DNA of 64,000 nt, from assembly GCA_016861265.1 (NCBI GenBank), contig BOLA01000001.1, positions 852,136-916,135 of the forward strand. Reading direction: 5' to 3'. The translations under genes were made by a program, and so were the position numbers. This stretch comes from Patescibacteria group bacterium. Lineage in GTDB: Bacteria > Patescibacteriota > Dojkabacteria > J137. Each line of letters opens with the position of its first letter. Positions within the stretch are counted from its first letter, which is position 1. The notes below the pieces were generated by a model that was not told the origin of the DNA, made no database searches, and worked only from the letters and a program-made list of their open reading frames with translations. Below, in pieces: positions 36,885 to 56,683 of the stretch.

Positions 36885-39800
36885 ATGGGAGACAAATTTT
36901 TGAATTTAAAAAATGAACTAAAGAATAAATTAATTGAAAGATTACCAATAATATTTATTGTAATAATTTCAATACTATTCACCTACTCCTTCATTAAGGA
37001 GAGTATTACGGTAAATATACAAACAGGAGCAGCTATTCCCAACTCTATAGTCAATTCTATTGTAGTGGCATTAGATAGTACAGTTAATCCAAATGGAATA
37101 ATTGCCGCAGCAGTAGATATTTCTGAAAAGGTACAAAACGGAGAGGGAATAATTGTAAAAGATGTATTCGATAGGTGTGTAATTCAAAGTGATAACAGAG
37201 TCAGCGATGGATTTTACCAGCCATTCGATACAAAAGCCGGTGTAAACAATGGTGATCCTATTGGAGATGGTAATGGTGGCGACGAAATTAGAAAATATTT
37301 AAGATACGACAACAGATCTTCGTTGGATTTAGAAGCAAGTCAAAACGTTGTAATTTTAATGAAAGGAACAGGACCAACTGTTCTGGCATCGGCAATTAGG
37401 AATATAAACGAAAAAGGAATGATACCTATAATCAGATTAGGTGTAATTGACATGGGAGATTATCCGTTTCAACTAACTGAAGATGCAAGTGAAATGGTTA
37501 ACTACTTTACACAAGTAGGTGATGAATTAATGCGTGAAAATAAAGGTTGGAAGGCCGTATTATCTTTAGGGCCTAATGAACCTACTACAGGAGGTGCTGG
37601 AGAAGGTAATATTCAGGTTATGGGTATTCCTGATTACCAGACAATGGTACAAAGAGAAAATCAGGCTGCTGATCAGTTACAAAAATACAGAGTTGTTAAT
37701 GGTGGTCCATTCTGGCTTGCACCTGCCATCTTTAATGGAACGGCATCTTATCAGGCAAATGGAAGAGAATATTCTCAAGATGTATATAGGCACTTGTATA
37801 TTGATGGAGAAGATACGAGTACAGAAAAAGACTACTGGAAAAGAAAAAGCATTGACCCAGACCTATTCGACGTGATGCTTGCAAACATATACATGAATGT
37901 GGCAAAACCTGCATATAACTTTTATAAGGAATTTGGGTTAAAAGAATATGTAGATAAAAGACCTGGATTAGTAACAATCGTTACAGAATTTGGAATAGAT
38001 CCATTCTCACCATCTTTAGTTACTGCTGATTTGAAACCTGACTTTAAGGCGTTCTACGAGGATCCTAAGGTAGAAGGAATAAATTGGTTTAGAGCACTTA
38101 AAGATAAGCCAGCCCCAGCCCCTGCTCCTTCACCAGAGCAAAGTGCTACCCTTGAGGACTTTATTAAATTCTTGGAACAATCCGGGAAGACGGCTAAAAA
38201 AATATCTCTAAAGAACTTTTCTTGGGTTAATTGCGCTTTGGGTACAACAATAGAACGAACTTCTACATCTTCAAGTGGTTCCAGCAGCGGAACTTTAAAT
38301 CCAACAACAAAGGGTGGTTTAAATGAAGGAGAGAACGCACCAGGCGGTGGTGCAACAATGGATACAGCTAAATCTTATGGGTTGGCAGGCTATAGTTTAG
38401 CAATTATAAACAATCCAGGCGACAGTGCTGCAGCAATTCAATTCATTAGCGAGTCAATTTCTAAAGGCTTCACACCGATTATACGTTTATGCGTAAACGT
38501 ATCTGGTTCATGTGGGTTTAATCTTTCCGGAGGCAGAGCCGATGATTTAGTGAGCTTTTATAATGCTGTATCACAAGGTGCATCTGGTAGCTTTATTGGA
38601 ATTGTGGGACCTAATGAACCTAGCACCGAATGGGGTGTATTTAATGCCTCGAGTATGGACGAAGTAAAAAGAGCTGCCGTTACAGCAGCAAAAACAATAA
38701 ACAAGAATGGAAAGATGCTGATTGGTACCCCAGCATTTAATCTCCAAACTCAGGATTTAACACAATTCAAAAGTGCATTTGGCGAAGCTAAGTTCGATGT
38801 TTTAATCGGCAATGCCTACAATATTGGAACAGCAAAAGCGGATGAAATTGCGGGCGAAGCCATCTCAACTTCTAAAGCAAACGGACTAAAATTTATTTTG
38901 ACGGAAACCGGTGCTATAAAAGGTGCTGCAGAAGATTTTGAAACTACAATCGGAAGATTATGTTCCCAAGTAGATGGATTCATGTTATTTAGATCTCAGG
39001 AAAGTTCTCCGGGGGGGAATTATGAGAATGTACCCCAGCCATTCGGGCCTGAAAAACTAAAGGCAATTGCTGCTGCATGCAATGGTAGCAACCCAACTTC
39101 CAGTAACGATAGTAATTCTACCGATAGCCGAGATGATTCATCAAATTCTGCTATTCAATGTACATCCGGGGTGGCAGATGACCAGATCATATTCCTAGGT
39201 GACAGTCTAACTAACGAACTTGTAGCAAAACAGTTTCCTGGCTCAAAAAATTTAGGATTTCCAGGAGCCAGCACTGAATGGTTAGTACCTGGATCCGAAC
39301 CAGCCAACGATAAGTCCGATCAATTAAATACGACTTTAAACGATCCAAAGTATAAAGCAATTGTAATTGAATTTGGAACGAACGACTGCGGAGGAGTAGA
39401 TGTAGGTAGGTTTAAACAAAATTTAACAACAATTATTAATAATATTAAGAATGTTAATGCTGAAGTAGACATTATCTTGAGTACAATACCGAGAGCGCAT
39501 AAAGCATGTTCAGCAAGTACAATAGACAGTTTTAATGCAGCTATTAACGAAGTTCGTTCATCTACAGGAGTTTTAGGCAGGGAACTTGGAGGTTCATTAT
39601 TCGATGAATCTGACTTAAGATCAGGTGACGACAGACACTTAACCGACGAAGCTTATGCTGAAATTGCACAAATAACCAAGGAGGCATTAGGCGGAGTTTG
39701 CGTAGGATCTAATACAGGAACAACTACAGAAACTACATTAGGTGCAGGATCTCTTGCACTTAGTTGTGGTGTTGAAGAAGACAAACCTGCTGAATTCTAC

Positions 39801-42800
39801 CAAGGCAAGAATGCCGCAGCATTAAGAGTTAGGTGTGCAGGAGGATCATGTACAACAAAAATGGTGGGAACAATCGAGATCGAAGCACCAACAAAATTAT
39901 TCTCTACAAATACTCCAAATGGGACCATGAGATTAAGATACGTACCGGTTTCTCAAGTTGCAGCAAGTCAATCAAAAACTGATGGCTACGACGGACTAAA
40001 TATGTTTGCCGGAGAAATAAAAATTGGTTCCGACAGTTATCCTCTACCGGGTTTGGGTAGTGCAATTAATTCAGCTACAGAGATATTAGAGGAAACAATG
40101 ACGTCGGGTGATCCTAAGAGATTCTCCACTCCAAGCGGACAATCATTATTAAAATGGACAAGAAATAAACTTGAAATACAGAGTCAACAGGGAAAAACAA
40201 TCGGTGTTGTTGGCGAGAAGAATGTAGGAGGGTTCACCACGAATGCATTCTCTATACAGGAAAAAGAAGGAAATAGCCTAGAGTCTATAAATGAAAGAGC
40301 TGTTACTTACGATGGCTTAACATTTAATAACGATGCTGGTTTAGCTGATTGGAGGAAAAACTTAATGCCTTATGACCCTTCAATTGCATTCCCAACCTAT
40401 ATTGCACCTAAAGCTTGTCAGCAAAGTGAAATGAAATTTATTAATAATTTAGATAATTACGTTACTGGTCCTGAATTAGTGGTAGAGGAAGAAAAAACTG
40501 TTACTACAAATACAACTCAGCAAATCTGTTGGATGTATGCCGGAAGAAGTATTCCAGGAAGAACTCCATATATGTCTGGTGACGGTGTTAAGACTTGCGG
40601 TTATATTTTTGATACAAGAATATTCTCAGATGCAAATATAGATGCAATTTCACCAAGAAAGGGTAAGCCGTTACATAGAATCTACGAGACTGTATATAAC
40701 GAACTATTGGGTACTTATGTAACAACAAGTCGAATTGAAGAAGGCAATTGGACTTGTCAGGAATTATTTACCGGGCAGGCAAATGGTACAGACGGTGTGG
40801 ACGAAGATGCAGAATTCAAGAATGTTGAAGCACCTAAGGTATTACCAAATTGTGACTTCGACGATTATTATTTTGAATTATATAAAGGTAAACTATCAGA
40901 TGCACCAGGCAATCCTGCTAGAAGCGGTAGATGCGATATTCCTGCGGATCTAGTTTCCTGCTTAAGATACGATGCTCAGGATTCAGACGAGGTCTATATT
41001 CATACCGAAAAATACCCAATAGCAAGTAAAGTTAAAATTCCAAAAATCTACTCTGCTCTTTACGGCCTTTACGATAGATTACAAACAATGATGAGTAACC
41101 GAAACATGAAGATGGTATTCAGGGAAAATATTGGAATGAAATTCAAGGTAAACTCAAAAATTCGAGACGCAAACGAATCCATTAGTGCAGTTCAATATGA
41201 CTTCTCAACACAGTACGATAATTATTATCAACCTGAATTAATTGATAATACTTTACCTTTGGCATCAAACAATCCTACAAAGACTCAATTTCAATATTTT
41301 GATGATCTAGGTTACCTGGATATTTTGCAGGAATATACTGTAGCCTATGCTAATGAACAAGCAATAATAGGAGATCATGTAATGGATAATCCTTTTGTAG
41401 AAAAAGGAATCTTTAACCCACTACAGGATAGAACAAAAATTGTTGCAGGAGGAGAATCTAATTTAAGTCTAGCAAATCCAATACTAACCTGCGATCAAGT
41501 CGAGATCTGTAAAAACTATACGTATACTGAACTTGAAACAACTTTCGGACCAACAATGGCGCTTAGGCTTTGTCCATTAACCGAAAAACTACCGGTTGAT
41601 GCTAAGAAGAACTGTATAACAAATATTTCAGATGATAGATTTATTGATAGGTTGAATACAACGCTATGTGCTAGAGGTTTTAATGTAGACGAAAACTGTC
41701 ATTTTCAATGTTCAGTTTCAGGTCAAGGTGGTAATAACAGTGGTGGTAATGGTACAACACCCGTAATTATTAATGGTACATATTCAACGCTATTTCCTGT
41801 AAGTAAATCTAGACAAATTCCAAACTGTACTGAACCTGCAAGTGTTCAAGTTGTAAATACTGATAGACCTGTACAAAACGATGAAGGTATGACCAGCATT
41901 AGTCTAATACCTGTTGCCAAGCAGGCGCTAGAACAGATGATGGCCGCTATGAAACAAAACGATCCTTCTACCTACGCAAAATGCGGATTTGCATATGGCT
42001 ACAGAAGTGCCGAAATGCAGGGTACGTACACTTGTGGATCCGGTACGGCATGTAAGTGTCACAGTGAACATCAACTAGGTACTACTGTAGACTTTAGAAA
42101 TGCCGAAGATATGTCTGCCGCAAATAAGTTTAACGGTTCAGCATGTAGTAATTGGCTAAGGTCTAATGCTGCTAATTACGGATTTATTCAGTCTTATACT
42201 GGTGCAGATCCAGATTACGTTGCAGAATCGTGGCACTACAGATACATTGGAATAGAAGAAGCTCAGAAATTCAAGGCACAAAGTCAATATACATACTTAA
42301 GAGCCTATCTTGAAAGTATACAATCGGGAGGTAACTCTTCAGGGAATGGTAATACATCAAATATTCCAGGAGACTTTAAAGTAAGATATCCTACGGAGTT
42401 CGATACCTTAACCGGAAATTACGGAACTAAGGGAGGTTATGCAACCCATACTGGTGTAGATATAAGAGTTTCGGGGGTTGGAGGAACTATATTCGCTGCA
42501 GAATCCGGTACGGTTCTTTATGCTGGACCAGATAACGAAAATAATGCTAACTATACATGCGTAACCGATTCTAATAGCAATAAATATAGTCCATTATGTC
42601 AACAATTAGGTCTAAGTAATATTGGTGCATACGGATTCATGGTAAAAATACTACATCCAAATGGTAAGGTAACCCTATATGCCCATAATTCCGATTTAAA
42701 GGTAAAGACTGGAGATTGTGTTAATAAAGGGGATTTAATTGCACTAGCAGGCAGTGTTGGTAATTCTACTGGCCCACATAGTCACTTTGAAATTAGAAAG

Positions 42801-44306
42801 AACTCTTCATGTTCTTGGGACGGTAACAGTTTGGGAGTATGTACTGAACCACCAGAAGATTATCTTGTTCCAGGTGGCGGAAACACTTCGGTATTTACTA
42901 GCGATCAAATTAAAAGTGTATGTAATGGTGTGCTGCCACCTACAGATCCTGGAACGGGTGATGGGGATGAAATCGTATGTAGACCAACAGGTGAAGATGA
43001 AATTCCTACAGATGATAATCCAAAGCAGACACCTGGAGGTGCATTGTGCTTAATTAAGAAAGCAGCAGATTCACTAACTGCTAACGGTATACCTACAAAT
43101 CCATATATGATGTATGCAATATTACATCAAGAAACACAGTCACTATTAGATCCTTTAGCAGGTAAGAATGACTTTATTTGTCCTACAACCTGGGACGATT
43201 GGGCTCTAAATATTGGTAATTTGTCTTCCTTGCCAAAGTGTACAGGTGATCCAAATCAGAAAGCATTTGCGTCATTTAACAGATCGAATCCACCAAATAT
43301 TGATGTAAGAGGATTAACACAGTTCTACTCTGCTACGTTTAATGGGATTATTAATAATTACGATAGCGTAATGACAAATTGCATTAACGATTTAGGTGTA
43401 GATAACACAATTGCAAACAGTATTTGGTTAGATCCATTAAGTAGTCAGCCAGGTAAATTCAGTAGGCATAGAGTTGGAGATGCTATCTGTGCTCAAGCTG
43501 TTAAGTTAATGAACGATGCAAGAACTGCAAATGGAGGCACTTACCTTACAGTGGAAGAATGGTTGAGTAATCCGGAGATAATAAGGCAAACCGCATGTAC
43601 TTATTATGGTGCATGTCAGGACAATTACGAGGTCAATGTATTGAGATACTTTAATGAAGCAGTTCAAGCAAAGGTATTCGACAATTTAGATTGTAGCGGA
43701 AATTCAACCGGTCCAGATCCAAGCGGCGTACTAAGTTGTAATGTTAATACAAGTGCAGCATCTACCACACCCGACTTTAGTAAGAGTGCATTGTCCTGGG
43801 AAGCTTACATTAGAGCTTTAAATCTTGATAATAATTCAAGCTATGTATGGTTTGCAAACCCTAATGGCGAAAGTGACAACCTAAAGCAAAGGTTAATAAA
43901 TAAGCTAGGCAGTGAGTCTGCTTACCAACAGGACTATAATCAAAGATTACAGGTTACTAATGCGTTTATAGACAAGGCCAAGTCATTGGGAATAAATCCT
44001 CAGTTTGCATTAACACTGTGGTTTGAAGAAACTGAATTCTCTGCTGTGGGTAAGGCTGCATTAGGCTGTTTGTATTTTAGAAATGGTACACAAACAACAG
44101 ACATTCCTAGAGATGGTAATCCCGCAAGCCAAATAGCCCACTTAAATCAGCAATTAGAATGTTTAAACACCTATGTTGATGAATTCACGGAGTTTAGACA
44201 ATTTATGTGTACATATTCCGGAGAAGTTGGTAGGCCTAACTGTACGGAATTCAAGAACAATCCGAACTTCCCGAAAAATATTTGCAGATATTACGATTGG
44301 TTTTAA
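36885..44306 (+). CDS. Giant membrane-anchored multi-hydrolase (2x GH-A-like, SGNH, M15B, M23, 2x lysozyme/SLT-like)
   Basis: N-terminal TM; NEP/TEFG and NEP/TETG; GDSL/GTND/DDRH; SEH...VD...ESWH; HTGVD/HSH; ILHQET...GLTQF; LWFEET. Confidence 0.85.
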   Translation: MGDKFLNLKNELKNKLIERLPIIFIVIISILFTYSFIKESITVNIQTGAAIPNSIVNSIVVALDSTVNPNGIIAAAVDISEKVQNGEGIIVKDVFDRCVIQSDNRVSDGFYQPFDTKAGVNNGDPIGDGNGGDEIRKYLRYDNRSSLDLEASQNVVILMKGTGPTVLASAIRNINEKGMIPIIRLGVIDMGDYPFQLTEDASEMVNYFTQVGDELMRENKGWKAVLSLGPNEPTTGGAGEGNIQVMGIPDYQTMVQRENQAADQLQKYRVVNGGPFWLAPAIFNGTASYQANGREYSQDVYRHLYIDGEDTSTEKDYWKRKSIDPDLFDVMLANIYMNVAKPAYNFYKEFGLKEYVDKRPGLVTIVTEFGIDPFSPSLVTADLKPDFKAFYEDPKVEGINWFRALKDKPAPAPAPSPEQSATLEDFIKFLEQSGKTAKKISLKNFSWVNCALGTTIERTSTSSSGSSSGTLNPTTKGGLNEGENAPGGGATMDTAKSYGLAGYSLAIINNPGDSAAAIQFISESISKGFTPIIRLCVNVSGSCGFNLSGGRADDLVSFYNAVSQGASGSFIGIVGPNEPSTEWGVFNASSMDEVKRAAVTAAKTINKNGKMLIGTPAFNLQTQDLTQFKSAFGEAKFDVLIGNAYNIGTAKADEIAGEAISTSKANGLKFILTETGAIKGAAEDFETTIGRLCSQVDGFMLFRSQESSPGGNYENVPQPFGPEKLKAIAAACNGSNPTSSNDSNSTDSRDDSSNSAIQCTSGVADDQIIFLGDSLTNELVAKQFPGSKNLGFPGASTEWLVPGSEPANDKSDQLNTTLNDPKYKAIVIEFGTNDCGGVDVGRFKQNLTTIINNIKNVNAEVDIILSTIPRAHKACSASTIDSFNAAINEVRSSTGVLGRELGGSLFDESDLRSGDDRHLTDEAYAEIAQITKEALGGVCVGSNTGTTTETTLGAGSLALSCGVEEDKPAEFYQGKNAAALRVRCAGGSCTTKMVGTIEIEAPTKLFSTNTPNGTMRLRYVPVSQVAASQSKTDGYDGLNMFAGEIKIGSDSYPLPGLGSAINSATEILEETMTSGDPKRFSTPSGQSLLKWTRNKLEIQSQQGKTIGVVGEKNVGGFTTNAFSIQEKEGNSLESINERAVTYDGLTFNNDAGLADWRKNLMPYDPSIAFPTYIAPKACQQSEMKFINNLDNYVTGPELVVEEEKTVTTNTTQQICWMYAGRSIPGRTPYMSGDGVKTCGYIFDTRIFSDANIDAISPRKGKPLHRIYETVYNELLGTYVTTSRIEEGNWTCQELFTGQANGTDGVDEDAEFKNVEAPKVLPNCDFDDYYFELYKGKLSDAPGNPARSGRCDIPADLVSCLRYDAQDSDEVYIHTEKYPIASKVKIPKIYSALYGLYDRLQTMMSNRNMKMVFRENIGMKFKVNSKIRDANESISAVQYDFSTQYDNYYQPELIDNTLPLASNNPTKTQFQYFDDLGYLDILQEYTVAYANEQAIIGDHVMDNPFVEKGIFNPLQDRTKIVAGGESNLSLANPILTCDQVEICKNYTYTELETTFGPTMALRLCPLTEKLPVDAKKNCITNISDDRFIDRLNTTLCARGFNVDENCHFQCSVSGQGGNNSGGNGTTPVIINGTYSTLFPVSKSRQIPNCTEPASVQVVNTDRPVQNDEGMTSISLIPVAKQALEQMMAAMKQNDPSTYAKCGFAYGYRSAEMQGTYTCGSGTACKCHSEHQLGTTVDFRNAEDMSAANKFNGSACSNWLRSNAANYGFIQSYTGADPDYVAESWHYRYIGIEEAQKFKAQSQYTYLRAYLESIQSGGNSSGNGNTSNIPGDFKVRYPTEFDTLTGNYGTKGGYATHTGVDIRVSGVGGTIFAAESGTVLYAGPDNENNANYTCVTDSNSNKYSPLCQQLGLSNIGAYGFMVKILHPNGKVTLYAHNSDLKVKTGDCVNKGDLIALAGSVGNSTGPHSHFEIRKNSSCSWDGNSLGVCTEPPEDYLVPGGGNTSVFTSDQIKSVCNGVLPPTDPGTGDGDEIVCRPTGEDEIPTDDNPKQTPGGALCLIKKAADSLTANGIPTNPYMMYAILHQETQSLLDPLAGKNDFICPTTWDDWALNIGNLSSLPKCTGDPNQKAFASFNRSNPPNIDVRGLTQFYSATFNGIINNYDSVMTNCINDLGVDNTIANSIWLDPLSSQPGKFSRHRVGDAICAQAVKLMNDARTANGGTYLTVEEWLSNPEIIRQTACTYYGACQDNYEVNVLRYFNEAVQAKVFDNLDCSGNSTGPDPSGVLSCNVNTSAASTTPDFSKSALSWEAYIRALNLDNNSSYVWFANPNGESDNLKQRLINKLGSESAYQQDYNQRLQVTNAFIDKAKSLGINPQFALTLWFEETEFSAVGKAALGCLYFRNGTQTTDIPRDGNPASQIAHLNQQLECLNTYVDEFTEFRQFMCTYSGEVGRPNCTEFKNNPNFPKNICRYYDWF

Positions 44307-50412: not shown

Positions 50413-50634
50413 CTAAGCAGCTTGGGATGCAACTAGCTTAATATGATCGTCCATCTGTTGCTTTACATCAGATGAAGCGCACTCATAAGAGCTTGTGTAG
50501 CAATTCTGAGCTTCAAAAAGCTCCATTCCGGCTTCTTCACTGGAACTCCCAGTTCCATGACGCGCCAGTCTTTTTGAACGCTCCTGTGCTTCCACCAGTC
50601 GCTCCCAACATTGCTTCAGTTCTTCAAAGTTCAT
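50413..50634 (-). CDS. Small hypothetical protein (SD-led orphan)
   Basis: GAGGA upstream, GC-richer than flanks, hairpin at about 50369-50397. Confidence 0.6.
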   Translation of the reverse strand: MNFEELKQCWERLVEAQERSKRLARHGTGSSSEEAGMELFEAQNCYTSSYECASSDVKQQMDDHIKLVASQAA

Positions 50635-50737
50635 TGAAAAGTCCTCATGTCTTTACCGTGCCAGGAAGTATATCATTTGTTATTAATTTTAGACAACATT
50701 TGAAGTGTTGTGGGCGAGCATTACGCTCGCCCACGGA

Positions 50738-51010
50738 TCACTCCGAAGGCACGTTATTTTTCATGTCTTCGAAGGCAGCTACAATATGCGGCTCGCATTC
50801 TGCGAGCCGCCTTTCCAGTTTCCCATTCTCAGAATCTTTGATTGCCAGAGCCTTTTTGTATTCAAACTCTGGTACCAAATTGATTTTGGTAACTGGATTC
50901 TCATAGCTGTTAATGATTTCCTCAGCAGCAAGTACAAGGCTGTATATGCCGCATAAGCCGACTAACAGCCACATCTCAGCAGCTGTTAACGAGTGCTTTG
51001 CAGATTCCAT
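50738..51010 (-). CDS. Small single-TM hypothetical protein (SD-led orphan)
   Basis: AGGAG upstream, hairpin gtgggcgagc...gctcgcccac 50710-50734 downstream. Confidence 0.65.
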   Translation of the reverse strand: MESAKHSLTAAEMWLLVGLCGIYSLVLAAEEIINSYENPVTKINLVPEFEYKKALAIKDSENGKLERRLAECEPHIVAAFEDMKNNVPSE

Positions 51011-51124
51011 TGTTTACTCCTACTATAAAAGCACAACTGGGATTATATGTTGATTAGATAATCTTTGCAAAACTTTAGTAGTTTTATCGGCTGTGATAAA
51101 CTTTATGCATTTAATACTCAATTT

Positions 51125-52132
51125 ATGGAACAACTATCAGTAATTTTAGGATTCACTATACTTTCAATGATTGTAACTGCTCTGTACGCTCCCCTATTAA
51201 TTAAGCTTTTATACAAAATGCAAATTGTAGTAAGGCATTCACTTATGGGAAATAAAATGAATGAGGAGTTTATCAAAATACAAGGTCATAAAACTGGAAC
51301 TCCTACTCTTGGCGGACTAATGATTTCAATTTCTGTTTTAGTATTAGGGCTAGTATTTTTGCCAGAGAATAATCTAAAGTTACTATTTCTTATTTTTTGG
51401 GGGTTATTTACACTCTATGGTTTAATTGAAGGTCTTATAGTTTACGCTAGAAAGCTAAGTGATAAGTTCAAACTCTTAGAATCAAGCTTTGAATGGAGAA
51501 TGGGAAAATTATTTGTACTTTACTTAATATGTTTAATGGCTGTAGCCGCAACATGTAAGTTTTTAGCGATTGATCAAATAGAATTATTTGGAATAACTAT
51601 TATTATTAACACACTGTCTGTTTTTATAGGCTCATTTTTCTTTGTGTTGGCAATGTATGCTATGGAAATCACAGATGGTGCAGATGGTCTTGTAACTGGG
51701 CAATTCTTAATTGCAATTATTTCCTATGTAGTTATAAGTATGCTTACTGGTAAAACAGAATTAGTTCCAATCCTTGGGTTAATTCTTGGTTCCAGTATTG
51801 TGTATTTATACTTTAATATAAATCCTGCTAGAGTATTTATGGGGGGGACAGGGACTTTTCCTATTGCCTTTGCAATACTTATATCTTCTGTAATTACTAA
51901 TACAGTAGATATTCTTCTAATAATCGGAATTATATTCTGGATTGAATTAGGATCAAGTGCACTACAAATATTATGGATAAAATTATTCAAAAAACGATTG
52001 TTTAAAATAGCCCCATTTCACCATTACTTTGAGTCCGTTGGATGGCCTGAAACTAAGATGGTACAAAGATTCTGGTTGTTTTCAGCTATATTTGCATTGG
52101 TGGGATTATGGATATTTAGTCTTATTAAATAG
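51125..52132 (+). CDS. mraY: MraY homologue with catalytic Asp residues substituted
   Basis: KTGTPTLGG, TDGADGL, FN.NPARVFMG, APFHHYFE...GWPETK.V.RFW; DD->EG and MGD->MGG. Confidence 0.8.
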   Translation: MEQLSVILGFTILSMIVTALYAPLLIKLLYKMQIVVRHSLMGNKMNEEFIKIQGHKTGTPTLGGLMISISVLVLGLVFLPENNLKLLFLIFWGLFTLYGLIEGLIVYARKLSDKFKLLESSFEWRMGKLFVLYLICLMAVAATCKFLAIDQIELFGITIIINTLSVFIGSFFFVLAMYAMEITDGADGLVTGQFLIAIISYVVISMLTGKTELVPILGLILGSSIVYLYFNINPARVFMGGTGTFPIAFAILISSVITNTVDILLIIGIIFWIELGSSALQILWIKLFKKRLFKIAPFHHYFESVGWPETKMVQRFWLFSAIFALVGLWIFSLIK

Positions 52133-52134
52133 TA

Positions 52135-52644
52135 TTATAACCAGCTTTGATCAATATTATTTAAGAAGTTGTCGTCCTTGAAAATGTTAAAGCTTTTATT
52201 GTATAGTCTAAATAGTTCAATTGTTGCCTTATAAAAGTCGTTTACTAATTCATGGCTAACCCGGTCAAATGCTTTATCTAGTCTTTCTTCGGCATCTCTA
52301 TGTACAAAAATATTTCTATACTTAATGAGTGAATTCAACCTTTGGTATAGATTATCTTTCTCATGCAATATTTCCTTTGAGTGATATTTTGAGATCTTAG
52401 GTAGGATTATTAACCTATTTTTAATTGAAATTCTTTCTAGGTATTCATAGTTAATAACGTAGGTGTATCCAAAGTCGTTAACAAAACTTTCTAAAGCGAG
52501 CTCAATAAGTATTAAACAATTTATTAGATAAACTTTTCTATGTTCACTAATGTATTTAGAAGATTGTTTCGAGGAGTCTGATTTATTGAACTGCTCTTTG
52601 GCAAGTTCAAGATATTTCTTATATAGTTTTCTATCGGTATTCAA
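52135..52644 (-). CDS. Putative HEPN-domain protein
   Basis: Helical; ELALESFVN near the N-terminus and RNIFVH (R-x4-H); TTG start. Confidence 0.6.
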   Translation of the reverse strand: MNTDRKLYKKYLELAKEQFNKSDSSKQSSKYISEHRKVYLINCLILIELALESFVNDFGYTYVINYEYLERISIKNRLIILPKISKYHSKEILHEKDNLYQRLNSLIKYRNIFVHRDAEERLDKAFDRVSHELVNDFYKATIELFRLYNKSFNIFKDDNFLNNIDQSWL

Positions 52645-52705
52645 TCTAATTAATAATCATGTATTTTTACATTATATCATTCGTTTCTGGGGTGTATAAA
52701 ATTGC

Positions 52706-53385
52706 AAAAGGCGGTCCCTCATAAAGAGAAACCGCCTTCCGCTGCTAACCTTTCGGATCGCAGCTTTCACAGCCTTTCGGCTGTGTGTAGAACCTAGAGT
52801 AAACTCTGGTATCCTAAGCGGGAACCCAACACTTCTGCTGGGAACTGGAATACCTTACCCTAGGTCAGTGAGTGATACCGATACCGAATTTTGTAGCGAG
52901 CAAGCTGCTACAAACCTTCGTCCGCTAATATCGGTATCGTGCCGAATGTGGGGGACACACTCGGCAGTCAATTTTGGTGCCGCATTTCACCGCTTCCTTG
53001 CGAGTGAATGCTGCAAATTGAAAACGTGATTTTCACTTTGCAATATTCAGTTGAGATTTTCGCTCGGTATACAAAGATACCGAGCGGTCCGTTAAGCGTA
53101 TTTCTACGCATTATTCTAGACTTTTCCATCCCCATGTTTTGGTTCAAAGTCCTGACAGGGGCCTTGCCTTGGCTTTCTTTCGAAAGACGGCCTAAATAAA
53201 CTGAATTTACTTAAGTTGTCCTTTGAAATTATGTTGTTAAATGTCTGGGAAGCATTCTATGAATGCTTCCCGCTAGTTCGTGAAAGTCCGGTTCCTCAAT
53301 GAGGACCAGTCAGCACTAACGGGTGGATTTAAATTTTCATTAAATACTTATATCCAACCCACTAGTACATTTAATTTAACGAGCT
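52706..53385 (-). ncRNA. Putative large structured non-coding RNA (~680 nt), family unassigned
   Basis: GC-rich; more than 15 helices with nested long-range stems; GAAA loops on the minus strand; TTTACT-N17-TATAAT at 53420-53392; terminal hairpin 52708-52738 followed by U4. Confidence 0.75.
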
Positions 53386-53444
53386 ATAATCATTATATAC
53401 CAAAGCACGCTTAAAGTAAATACTCCTGGGACGCGTTGATTTAG

Positions 53445-53600
53445 TTATAACTCTGCCGCAACCTTATTCGGTAGATATTCCAACAGTAAATTATGTCTAT
53501 CGACTTTATATCGATATCTAACCTTCCCAGTAGGTCTTTGTCTTCTACTGTAGAAACTTACTATACCAAAGGCCACGATTACTGAGACGATTTCGCCCAT
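53445..53600 (-). CDS. 51-aa small protein not in the ORF track (MGEIVSVIVAFGIVSFYSRRQRPTGKVRYRYKVDRHNLLLEYLPNKVAAEL)
   Basis: Translated by hand; TAAGGAG upstream, TTGACT...TATAAT at about 53706-53679, hydrophobic N-terminus. Confidence 0.55.
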   Translation of the reverse strand: MGEIVSVIVAFGIVSFYSRRQRPTGKVRYRYKVDRHNLLLEYLPNKVAAEL

Positions 53601-53800
53601 ATAATCTGCTCCTTAAAAATAGTATATATGGTTACTATACAGAGCTGTTGGTTCTTTGTACGTATGCCATACATAGAGATTATATAATATCTTACCCATA
53701 AGTCAATAAACAATGGCGACAAAATTTGCACATAATTTATTATTTAAATAGTTGTGAATTGCTTTACCTGCTATAATAATTCCGTATTAAACAAATTCAA

Positions 53801-55732
53801 ATGAATAAGAAAATTAGAAATTTTTGTATTATTGCTCATATCGACCATGGAAAATCAACCTTAGCTGACAGATTGATTGAAACTACAGGAGCAGTATCTT
53901 CTCGAGAAATGAAGGACAGAATGTTAGATACACTTGAATTGGAACAAGAAAGAGGTATTACCATAAAGCTTCAGACTGCCCGATTAAAGTATGAATATAA
54001 AGGCGAAAACGCCGAAAAGGGTGATTATATTCTTAACCTTATTGATACACCGGGTCATGTAGATTTTAGTTACGAGGTATCTCGTTCAGTTGCTGCCAGT
54101 GAAGGTTGCTTGTTATTGGTTGACGCGACCCAAGGTGTTCAGGCTCAAACACTAACTACTGTTTATAAGGCAATGGAATATGATTTAAAAATAATTCCTG
54201 TAATTAATAAGGTAGATATGGACATTGCCGAAGTTGAAAGAACCAAGCAAGAGATGATTGAAACCTTTGGATTTTCCGAGGACGAAATTATTATGGCATC
54301 TGGTAAGTCAGGAATCGGTGTTCACGAAATATTAGATGCAATTGTAGAAAGAATTCCTCCTTATAAAAAAGAGGAAACAAAAATATTAGCTGACGAAGAT
54401 GAGTTGTTAATTCTAGAAGGCAAAGAGACTAAAATTACAAAGGCGTTAATCTTTGACGCGTTCTTCCATGAATATAAGGGTGTAACTGCTTTAGTTAAGG
54501 TAATAAGTGGAGAAATCAAAAAAGGAGATAAGGTTTACTTTATAAGTACTCAAACCGATGTAACACCAATAGAAATTGGTTATCTACTGCCCAAAATGAC
54601 AGAGTCCGACTCTATAAAAGAAGGCGAAGTAGGTTATGTAGCAACGGGTTTAAAGGATATTCACAGAATTCATTCAGGCGATACAATCACTCTATTCCAC
54701 TCAAATCATAGTCATGAATCTGTTGAACCGCTTAAGGGTTACCGACAGCCAAAACCAATGGTGTACGCAAGCTTATATCCTGTAGAAGCTAGTGATTACG
54801 AAAGTTTTAAAGAAGCTTTAGAAAAATTATCACTAAACGATGCTGCTTTAACTTACCAAAAAGAATATTCTCAGGCATTAGGAACAGGTTTTGTTTGCGG
54901 ATTTTTAGGACTTTTACATTTAGAAATTACTCAAGACAGATTAGAGCGAGAACACAATATTGATTTAATTAGTACTACTCCGACTGTAGAATTTAAAGTG
55001 CTGTTAAAAACGAGGGATTACTCCAAGATTCCAAATATAAATGTGTCTAATATTGAAACCGAAACAAATATTGCAACTATACGTACAGCTGCAGAATTCC
55101 CTGAAGGAAGTATGTACGAAGAAGTTTACGAGCCTTGGGTAAAACTAGATATTATTACTCCTGAAGAATACATTGGTCCAATAATGGAACTTTGTCAAAA
55201 CAGAAGAGGTGTATATAAGCACATGAACTTCTTGAACAAGTCAGGGAATAAGAATCATGCAATTATAGAATATGAAATGCCTACTGTAGAGATTATTGTT
55301 AACTTTTTTGACAGATTAAAGTCAATTAGTCACGGATACGCCTCTATGGACTATTCGTTAATTGAATACAGGAGAGGTGATATTGTTAAGGTCTCTATTT
55401 TGGTTAATGAAGAACCTGCCGAATCTTTAAGCTTTTTAACTCACAGAAGCAATGCCGTAAGAAGGGGTCGTGAAATGGCTGATAAATTAAAGGAGTTAAT
55501 CCCAAGACAGAACTTTAAGGTTCCAATTCAGGCTGCAATTGGTGCGCAGATTATTGCAAGGGTAACAATAGACGCCTATAGAAAAGACGTCCTCGCAAAG
55601 TTATATGGAGGTGATGTTACTAGAAAATTAAAACTTCTTGAAAAGCAAAAGAAGGGAAAAAAGAAAATGAAGGCAATTGGTAATGTTGAAATTCCTAAAG
55701 AAGCTTTCTTAGCTGCATTAAAGATTGATTAA
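53801..55732 (+). CDS. lepA: Elongation factor 4
   Basis: AHIDHGKSTLADR, DTPGHVDF, GFLGLLH, LYGGDVTRK.KLLEKQK. Confidence 0.98.
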   Translation: MNKKIRNFCIIAHIDHGKSTLADRLIETTGAVSSREMKDRMLDTLELEQERGITIKLQTARLKYEYKGENAEKGDYILNLIDTPGHVDFSYEVSRSVAASEGCLLLVDATQGVQAQTLTTVYKAMEYDLKIIPVINKVDMDIAEVERTKQEMIETFGFSEDEIIMASGKSGIGVHEILDAIVERIPPYKKEETKILADEDELLILEGKETKITKALIFDAFFHEYKGVTALVKVISGEIKKGDKVYFISTQTDVTPIEIGYLLPKMTESDSIKEGEVGYVATGLKDIHRIHSGDTITLFHSNHSHESVEPLKGYRQPKPMVYASLYPVEASDYESFKEALEKLSLNDAALTYQKEYSQALGTGFVCGFLGLLHLEITQDRLEREHNIDLISTTPTVEFKVLLKTRDYSKIPNINVSNIETETNIATIRTAAEFPEGSMYEEVYEPWVKLDIITPEEYIGPIMELCQNRRGVYKHMNFLNKSGNKNHAIIEYEMPTVEIIVNFFDRLKSISHGYASMDYSLIEYRRGDIVKVSILVNEEPAESLSFLTHRSNAVRRGREMADKLKELIPRQNFKVPIQAAIGAQIIARVTIDAYRKDVLAKLYGGDVTRKLKLLEKQKKGKKKMKAIGNVEIPKEAFLAALKID

Positions 55733-55804: not shown

Positions 55805-56137
55805 CTAGCGCGAGATCAGCAGGTCGATTCCGTAGCATCCGTAATCCGGATTTTGCGGTTCGGCGTGCGCGAGACTGTGGAATTGCTGCGGCATATTATC
55901 GAGCGGCAAGCAAACCTCATCACCACTTTGAAGGTTAAAGGTTTCGCTTCCTAGAATCACGTCATAGTCCGTGTTGTTGTTGGTACGGAAAATGGCGGTT
56001 TCGCCGGGTTCCACTTCAACAACATAACTGTGACCGATTCCATTCTGGTATTGAATCTTCACGGCCACTTGGGCAGTGGGTGTTCCGAAAACCAGAGCCA
56101 TGAGAATCGACAGTAGCCAGCGAATCAATTCGTACAT
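55805..56137 (-). CDS. Small GC-rich secreted protein (SD-led orphan)
   Basis: AAGGAG before ATG 56137, signal peptide ...PTA-Q, TATAAT upstream. Confidence 0.7.
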   Translation of the reverse strand: MYELIRWLLSILMALVFGTPTAQVAVKIQYQNGIGHSYVVEVEPGETAIFRTNNNTDYDVILGSETFNLQSGDEVCLPLDNMPQQFHSLAHAEPQNPDYGCYGIDLLISR

Positions 56138-56293
56138 ACGACACACTCCTTGCTTTTTAAGTTGCTTTTAATTATAGCACTTATTGCTATATATACAATA
56201 TATACTGGGGTTGGATTGAAGGGAAAGTTTATTATAAAAAGCAATTGGCAGGTTGGGAGTTTTATTTCCCTTCCTGCCAATGTAGTGCGCTAC

Positions 56294-56683
56294 TTACTGT
56301 GCGTCTGCAACAGTGAAGCAGCGTTTGTCGCCGTCAACCTCTCCGCGAGTGTTGAACGGCGCCGGAATCACGAAGCTGCTGACGCAAACCCGATCATCCG
56401 CTGCAATCTGCACCTGCTGGGTATTTACCGTCAGCAAGGCGCCCCCATTGTTACTTTTTACGAAGGTAAACACCGTGTGCGGGGGGCGCACCGGGTACCG
56501 GTCATTCATGCCACTTGCGTGGCTGACCGCGATCTCTGCGTTTGGAACGACAGTGGGTTGCCCCGCCTGTCGAGCCTCGGTGATGATCTGACGAGCCGTA
56601 TTGCGGTACTTTACCGCTAACGCTGCCAGTATCACCAAAATAATCACCAACGCAAGCCGCTTCACTCTCTTGGATTTCTTCAT
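56294..56683 (-). CDS. Small GC-rich membrane-anchored/secreted protein (SD-led orphan)
   Basis: GGAGGTG, basic N-terminus plus hydrophobic helix, hairpin at about 56245-56280. Confidence 0.75.
   Translation of the reverse strand: MKKSKRVKRLALVIILVILAALAVKYRNTARQIITEARQAGQPTVVPNAEIAVSHASGMNDRYPVRPPHTVFTFVKSNNGGALLTVNTQQVQIAADDRVCVSSFVIPAPFNTRGEVDGDKRCFTVADAQ

Follow-up and report, generated by a model that had tools for sequence, protein, structure and literature searches.

Between lepA and an mraY-like gene in the genome of a member of the Dojkabacteria lies a gene for a large structured RNA, apparently of an undescribed family of large modular non-coding RNAs, of which three members are proven and two or three more are positional, all in a single lineage. 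The gene is predicted on the minus strand at positions 53385-52700 (∼685 nt, with both ends placed from the promoter and the terminator) of the window, by which we mean the whole 64,000-nucleotide stretch of DNA analysed; the genome it comes from (G000) is 1.18 Mb in length, has 34% GC and is 96% complete. Folding, covariation, a conserved promoter, start and terminator, and the lack of a match for the element in Rfam all bear out the proposal of the initial annotation that this is a large structured ncRNA outside all catalogued families, and we consider it very probably a real, selected ncRNA. What that annotation overlooked is the modular build of the RNA and the genes linked to it: on the minus strand the order is a 51-aa ORF, the RNA, its terminator and a 169-aa ORF, all between lepA and the mraY-like gene. 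The parts are as follows.

53801..55732, plus strand: lepA (named from a reading of the sequence), the divergent flank of the slot
53445..53600, minus strand: 51-aa ORF whose product has a hydrophobic N-terminus and a basic tail, with its own promoter-like site at 53706-53679
53392..53420, minus strand: sigma-70-type promoter of the RNA, TTTACT-17-TATAAT, with counterparts in L092, G003 and G002
53237..53385, minus strand: 5′ domain, with helices 53366-53346/53334-53315, 53307-53301/53297-53290 and 53271-53261/53257-53247
53179..53227, minus strand: hairpin H1, 20 bp, AU-rich, with apex AAU-loop-GUU; in L092 and G003 this repeated junction stands on both sides of the optional module A
53050..53174, minus strand: module B, comprising a stem-loop, a two-part hairpin, a 10-bp hairpin and A-rich linkers
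53005..53049, minus strand: hairpin H2 (core 53043-53011), with the apex motif of H1
52741..53004, minus strand: 3′ variable region of long helices and GNRA-capped hairpins, not conserved in sequence
52700..52742, minus strand: intrinsic terminator-like hairpin (52742-52704) with a short U run
52135..52644, minus strand: gene for a 169-aa predicted HEPN-type RNase (R110-N-I-F-V-H115), with its own extended -10-like site at 52676-52671
51065..52132, plus strand: mraY-like gene (Glycos_transf_4), the convergent flank of the slot

The minus strand of 53385-52700 folds at -267 kcal/mol (z -20), where 20 dinucleotide shuffles give -181 ± 4, and the plus strand at -239 kcal/mol (z -10). The element ranks sixth best among non-overlapping 600-nt stretches in a plus-strand scan of 14,711 genome windows, and when both strands of 12 structured stretches of the genome were refolded (4 shuffles each), its excess stability of -84 kcal/mol was the largest. 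The elements range from 520 to 1,090 nt with 61-70% of their bases paired, and GNRA loops in the five genus sequences number 10 on the sense strand and 0 on the antisense strand (0 and 1, respectively, in G008, from another genus). These sense-only loops, together with G-U pairs, point to RNA rather than DNA cruciforms.

All 13 arm pairs listed by the initial annotation are present where it put them, and 11 of the 13 helices have mean pairing probabilities of 0.87-1.0. The closing helix ttaaatgt/acatttaa fares less well, with a pairing probability of 0.2, but L092 can form six of its pairs, in invariant sequence. The proposed second domain closed by attcagtt/aactgaat (pairing probability 0.0) is wrong, because its 5′ arm is the top of H1, a hairpin kept with compensatory changes in both homologues. 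The 5′ end of the RNA probably pairs near 53285-53275, and pairing of 53152-53147 with 53123-53118 in module B is a possible pseudoknot, a candidate that is invariant. The word GGACUU occurs twice (53289-53283 and 53152-53147, minus strand), is kept in L092, and either copy could pair with 53124-53118; competition of these copies with a covarying stem is a possible switch or pseudoknot.

The longest ORFs inside the element (63 and 59 codons) have no Pfam match, in agreement with the earlier view that it holds no credible ORF, and a hidden peptide at a conserved AUGG was rejected because the frames diverge after five codons. The promoter and terminator that had been attributed to the RNA are both found, and the layout of promoter, start and terminator is common to the homologues. 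The promoter scan yields 18 promoter-like sites where 12.3 are expected by chance, and the site at 53420-53392 carries weight only because the homologues keep it: the promoters of L092, G003 and G002 read TTGAC(T/A)...TATAAT, and ATAG(C/T)T comes after them at an unchanged distance. At gathering score, Rfam returns nothing over the whole window except two tRNAs, and the best of 9 weak matches has an E value of 0.15. No second copy was found in the G000 genome, and a dispersed palindromic (REP) repeat was rejected on that ground; a dispersed family of structured RNAs within the genome was also rejected, the other folding peaks being, by reading, mostly small promoter-ORF-terminator cassettes.

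Small GC-richer ORF pairs, some with a promoter-like site, a strong ribosome binding site and a terminator, lie in the window itself at 50413-51010 and 55805-56683 (minus strand), and similar cassettes across the genome (G000:C1:135900-137675, 917213-918130 and 961468-962488) account for most of the other folding peaks. At G000:C1:944990-946470 (L134) a GC-rich, secreted-looking ORF of 370 aa stands out in this 34% GC genome; it has a structured leader of ∼250 nt that forms a long hairpin and contains what we take to be a boxA-like word. The window also includes a 2,473-aa ORF (36885-44306, plus strand) with several segments that read as cell-wall hydrolase-like. Three short rRNA motifs had no match in G000 despite tRNA-Ile and tRNA-Ala genes at C1:677586-677820, which may reflect divergence, masking or a wrong motif.

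Homologues were reached through lepA-to-mraY-like synteny and not through BLAST, which overlooked the true homologue in G003. A metagenome contig (L092) carries a homologue of ∼1,090 nt (local-alignment z 17.3, 0/100 shuffles), and G003 (L068) one of ∼1,085 nt (z 7.7, 0/100 shuffles). There is an element of ∼520 nt in G002 (L067; fold z -9.5), with L093 reading as the same sequence, and a 229-nt 3′ fragment at the same place in G001 (L071), where a contig break falls inside the slot. Alignment scores for these two are not significant (z 0.8-2.5 for G002 and at most 1.4 for G001), and we treat them as putative positional counterparts on the basis of position and of colinear motifs read from the alignment; the promoter and start of G002 match those of the element, and the elements of both G002 and G001 end in a hairpin with TTCGCATTT after it, as in G003. 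In G008 (L070), from another genus, a structured run of ∼385 nt (L070:3495-3880, z -8.5) sits in the slot without a sequence match, and it is doubtful as a family-level counterpart; it forms a four-way junction and is followed by a 74-aa membrane-type ORF.

The secondary structure of the RNA is under selection. In three helices aligned over G000, L092 and G003, both partners differ in 8 of 41 pairs and 97.6% of cells are paired, compared with 3.7 ± 1.4 pairs and 93% in shuffles (1/500) and 0-2 pairs in slid controls; these figures derive from three related sequences only, and the 41-pair structure was itself derived from this alignment, as its RNAalifold consensus less 9 of 50 pairs judged misaligned. 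The same helices contain 19 G-U cells and 3 non-pairing cells. To check this independently, we placed the pairs predicted from the G000 sequence by itself onto sequence-only alignments. In the comparison with L092, compensatory changes number 5 over the 32 pairs of the 5′ domain (null 1.2), two or three of these depending on doubtful alignment, and 4 over the 15 pairs of module B (null 0.5, 2/5,000); the terminator has 0 of 14 pairs broken where 5.2 are expected, and in H1, 1 of 18-20 pairs is broken (null 5-9). Module B against G003, on the sequence-only alignment, has 8 of 14 pairs broken, as by chance; the 3′ region has 25 of 54 broken, also a chance level, and the 3′ 250 nt have no covariation. 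Pseudoknot and kissing-loop candidates are invariant between G000 and L092 and either missing or invariant in G003, a comparison of three sequences only. Identity to L092 is 85% in H1, 84% in H2, 74% in the 5′ domain and 72% in module B, where a gapped null gives ∼55%, and in the 3′ region it is 60% compared with 55% for shuffles; four-fold sites agree at 43 of 95 positions in the mraY-like gene and 4 of 23 in the HEPN gene. Of the checks proposed for the initial annotation, Rfam gave no match for the element, and the search for homologues and covariation gave two sequence-proven homologues with compensatory changes.

The homologues share the layout of promoter, start and terminator and differ by an optional block of 360-380 nt, module A, bounded by repeated H1. 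In L092 a 26-nt exact direct repeat, corresponding to the top of H1, occurs in copies 360 nt apart, and in G003 two diverged H1 copies lie ∼375 nt apart. The intervening block can be aligned from L092 to G003 and has motifs in common with G002; it is absent from G000, which has one H1 and in which the 5′ domain is joined straight to the second H1 and module B. Because module A is present in both close and more distant relatives (mraY-like identities of 83, 78 and 73%), the simplest history, drawn from these occurrences rather than from a tree, would be its loss in G000 through recombination between H1 copies. The apex common to H1 and H2 is RAAU-loop-GUUY with a U-G closing pair; defined after the fact from G000, L092 and G003 themselves, it has 2, 3 and 4 copies, respectively, in these (0.4-0.6 in shuffles), 1 in G002, and 0 in both G008 and G001. 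Module A of L092 also contains a 19-nt tandem duplication (6304-6267, minus strand). The attC sites of integrons carry the motif GTTRRRY, and an attC reading of the ATTTAAC/H1 junction was rejected since no matching GTTRRRY is present.

The range of the family is one genus, probably of the Dojkabacteria. A BLAST-type DNA search matched 3 of 61 relatives and 4 of 401 phylum genomes, counts that include G000, and the remaining matches, of 27-37 nt without structured context, were discarded. Phage and plasmid collections gave only 7 and 1 short chance matches, respectively, and viral pattern scans gave 38, 3 and 120+ stretches (80 of the last tested), with a best profile E value of 0.043 among 121 viral loci. 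Model R1 matched 11 of 32 order genomes at E ≤ 0.05, strongly only in G000 and G003 and otherwise in ORFs or unstructured DNA; model R2 matched 2 of 151 class genomes and left G002, G001 and G008 undetected. The lepA slot could be read in 25 of 26 family genomes, with structured runs in G002, G003 and G008 and the fragment in G001, and 21 other family slots have no structured run (3 are cut short by contig ends). Outside the family, where the slot was read in class genomes that passed the lepA cut-off (151 of 221 fell below it), 45 of 48 were scorable and without the element and 3 were too short; the best z was -2.0, as against -2.2 to -4.7, and low-z slots there lie mostly inside ORFs. Within the family the slot is variable, with lepA and an rmuC-like gene remaining close while the inserts differ, and it is an insertion hot spot. 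In L085 (G017), ∼150-550 nt upstream of lepA, different non-coding palindromic, REP-like hairpins are found in this slot.

We found no published description of the element, although large motif lists in supplements could hold one. ROOL and GOLLD are described as phage-linked, pseudoknotted, cage-forming RNAs (PMC12286853, PMC12990946), and profiles for both and for OLE are in Rfam (PMC12286853); none of these three models matches the window, L067, L068, L070, L071 or L092. The element resembles the three classes in size class, dense pairing, GNRA loops, variable regions and unknown biochemical function (PMC12286853), and is unlike them in having no Rfam match, a range of one genus and modules bounded by a repeated hairpin. 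ROOL and GOLLD sit in phages or prophages, often near tRNA islands, whereas the element lies between lepA and the mraY-like gene, more than 12 kb from the nearest tRNA gene in the genome's list; GOLLD has a conserved 3′ and a variable 5′ region, and the element the reverse, its 3′ part being the most variable. The earlier placement in the size class of OLE, ROOL and GOLLD holds for size only: the phage or tRNA-island setting is missing, no covarying pseudoknot was found, the 3′ part varies and the range is a single genus.

The genome has its own genes for RNase P RNA (G000:C1:232548-233011, 141 bits) and tmRNA (G000:C1:641705-642156, 64 bits; none in the window), and both identities were rejected for the element, which has no match to the RNase P model. 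Group I or II introns and known small ribozymes were also rejected, as no model matches and the element is intergenic with its own promoter and terminator; the initial annotation had likewise seen no signature of tmRNA, RNase P or introns. SRP RNA has no RF00169 match in G000, and SRP_SPB (Ffh) is found in 0 of 5 genomes. For 6S RNA there is no RF00013 match in G000, with a control that detects only 5 of 14 genomes, and its rod of ∼190 nt differs from the element in size and fold. The Ro60 (TROVE) gene is found in 0 of 5 genomes, and RVT_1, sought as a test for retrons and DGRs, was not found in G000, G003 and G008 and is present elsewhere in G001 and G002.

In all three proven homologues (G000, G003 and L092) the same gene lies on the same strand directly behind the terminator; in G000 its frame begins ∼55 nt after it. 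Its 169-aa product is read, from structure model and sequence, as a likely active HEPN RNase. R110 and H115 of the RNIFVH motif are invariant in 15 of 15 aligned relatives, chosen from 8 close and 21 profile matches; the model is helical and confident (pLDDT 84.5), and the top 10 PDB rows from Foldseek are all HepT toxin-antitoxin structures at E 0.12-0.37, none of which reaches E 0.001. HEPN_RiboL-PSP is matched, below cut-off, by 7 of 14 relatives, and Abi_2 has no match in the protein. The fold and the RxxxxH motif are those of HepT/MntA (HEPN-MNT) pairs, but no MNT gene adjoins the HEPN gene, which has an RNA gene upstream instead; Pol-beta/MNT-type matches are far away, in frames of 282-642 aa. 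A -10-like site of its own, as a consensus match only, lies behind the terminator in 3 of 3 loci. Among 221 class genomes a close HEPN relative occurs only in G000 and G003; none was found in viral contigs, or other than in G000 in sets of 401 and 191 phylum genomes. The only remote relative with context, in G586 (E 7e-7), lacks a structured RNA upstream. The 51-aa ORF precedes the RNA in G000, L092 and G003 (86% and 69% identity in the latter two), has no usable match in the Protein Atlas, and was not found in G001, G002 or G004. Neither it nor the HEPN gene was found in G002 or, with its contig break inside the slot, in G001; both have a structured element in the slot with no gene after it on that strand.

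Transcription of the minus-strand RNA is weakly supported. Twenty sequencing runs hold part of 52135-53800, of which 5 are recorded as RNA, and four RNA runs from four studies were compared as contigs. X16 contains a 202-nt exact piece (53097-53298, depth 2.8) as well as pieces on the HEPN gene, on lepA and on small ORFs. The RNA is hit by two pieces from X20 (52819-52969 and 52958-53102, depth 4), and X18 and X19 have pieces at the RNA start and on the 51-aa ORF. These pieces are among those listed, from runs picked with this stretch; they give neither strand nor ends nor level and could include DNA, and parts they leave uncovered are uninformative, such that they are compatible with transcription and no more. 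The organism is present at trace level in the four libraries, and the RNA is not abundant there.

The explanation we tentatively favour, by analogy and with its full mechanism held at rather less than even confidence, is that of a separately transcribed, modular, protein-binding ncRNA that would hold the HEPN RNase in the manner of an AbiF or type III antitoxin. The RNA would fold as a chain of domains, its AU-rich H1 and H2 hairpins with their common apex, in 2-4 copies per RNA, may be repeated docking sites, and blocks could be gained or lost by recombination between H1 copies. The protein most likely bound would be the orphan HEPN RNase encoded behind the terminator, and this nuclease would be freed once the RNA is depleted, for example by phage infection. 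We favour this because the HEPN linkage holds in 3 of 3 loci, apex counts are higher in the loci with HEPN, and the gene order is AbiF-like. In the AbiF system as described, a promoter is followed by an ncRNA (RCd22) with two copies of a motif, a terminator and a toxin gene without its own promoter, and RCd22 binds and neutralises the toxin and acts in cis too (10.1101/2025.04.15.648962). The likeness lies in a terminated, structured ncRNA with what may be a repeated motif, followed by a same-strand gene for a predicted HEPN-related toxin (10.1101/2025.04.15.648962). As for differences, RCd22 is ∼100-130 nt, so that the element at 685-1,090 nt is 5-8 times longer; AbiF is prophage-borne and the HEPN locus here chromosomal; and the AbiF or type III toxin is transcribed by read-through only, in contrast to the -10-like site behind the terminator here. 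The abiF motif (RF03085) and Abi_2 are absent, and the HepT-fold protein is weakly like HEPN_RiboL-PSP. The locus thus falls outside AbiF, and what we propose, tentatively, is only a similar way of working.

Several observations weigh against this antitoxin reading. The three HEPN loci are related and could go back to one event, the structured element stays without HEPN in G002 and G001, and the G586 relative stands without the RNA; the HEPN gene has a -10-like site where abiF has none, and the RNA far exceeds RCd22 in length with no match to RF03085 or, in the protein, Abi_2. The 51-aa ORF occurs alongside just as consistently and may be the true partner of either one. The locus lies in an insertion hot spot, the definition of the apex motif draws on these same three loci, module B pairs break against G003, the 3′ 250 nt are without covariation, and the RNA-library evidence is thin and strandless.

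Nearly as likely is a stand-alone ornate RNA like ROOL, GOLLD, OLE or raiA, an RNA-only multimer or scaffold to which the HEPN gene and the 51-aa ORF are bystanders. Its size, dense pairing and GNRA loops fit such an RNA, as do its persistence without HEPN in G002 and G001, the promoter-like site that every gene here has to itself, and the variable regions reported for ROOL and GOLLD also (PMC12286853, PMC12990946). A covarying pseudoknot or kissing loop was not found, however, the candidates being invariant or missing in G003; phage records and the 121 viral loci hold no match, no tRNA gene is near, and, as a weak point, the RNA is not abundant in the four libraries with their trace of the organism. 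We give less credence to a new class independent of AbiF, in which cassettes of 350-400 nt are swapped at a repeated hairpin and the RNA joins a minimal HEPN RNase, perhaps together with the 51-aa membrane peptide, in an RNP.

It is improbable that the RNA is a precursor cut at H1 and H2 by RNase III into several small RNAs, with the modules as cargo. H1 lies exactly at module borders, whole modules come and go, and all 5 genomes tested have RNase III, but H2 has the same apex and is not a module border, and no antisense-like match was found elsewhere in the G000 genome (best E 0.038). Slightly more improbable again is a cis-acting leader or attenuator that controls how much transcription reads through to the HEPN gene and does not bind the protein directly. 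The short distance from a terminator with a short U run to a same-strand frame would suit it, as would two GGACUU copies able to compete for one partner strand and the cis action of RCd22 (10.1101/2025.04.15.648962); against it are the -10-like site of the HEPN gene, the lack of anything after the element on that strand in G002 and G001, the absence of an identified antiterminator, and the fact that the 3′ region beside the terminator is the least conserved part. Least likely is a palindromic DNA relic of insertions, REP- or MITE-like, to which the well-folding plus strand, the hypervariable slot and the narrow range (2 of 151 class genomes) would be suited but to which the single genomic copy, the excess of G-U over non-pairing cells in three conserved helices, the sense-only GNRA loops, a promoter, start and terminator kept in four genomes or contigs, and conservation above that of synonymous sites are all opposed.

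To our knowledge few classes of bacterial ncRNA exceed 500 nt, and none of that size from Patescibacteria is described in the literature searched. The element varies twofold in size by gain or loss of whole domains while its structure is kept, and it comes with a partner candidate that is testable. Should the RNA restrain the HEPN RNase, it would be a second and much larger case of an RNA-HEPN pairing, a pairing that has been linked to the origin of Cas13; if it does not, it would be a new large RNA for structural work, from bacteria with reduced genomes in which neither SRP RNA nor 6S RNA was detected.
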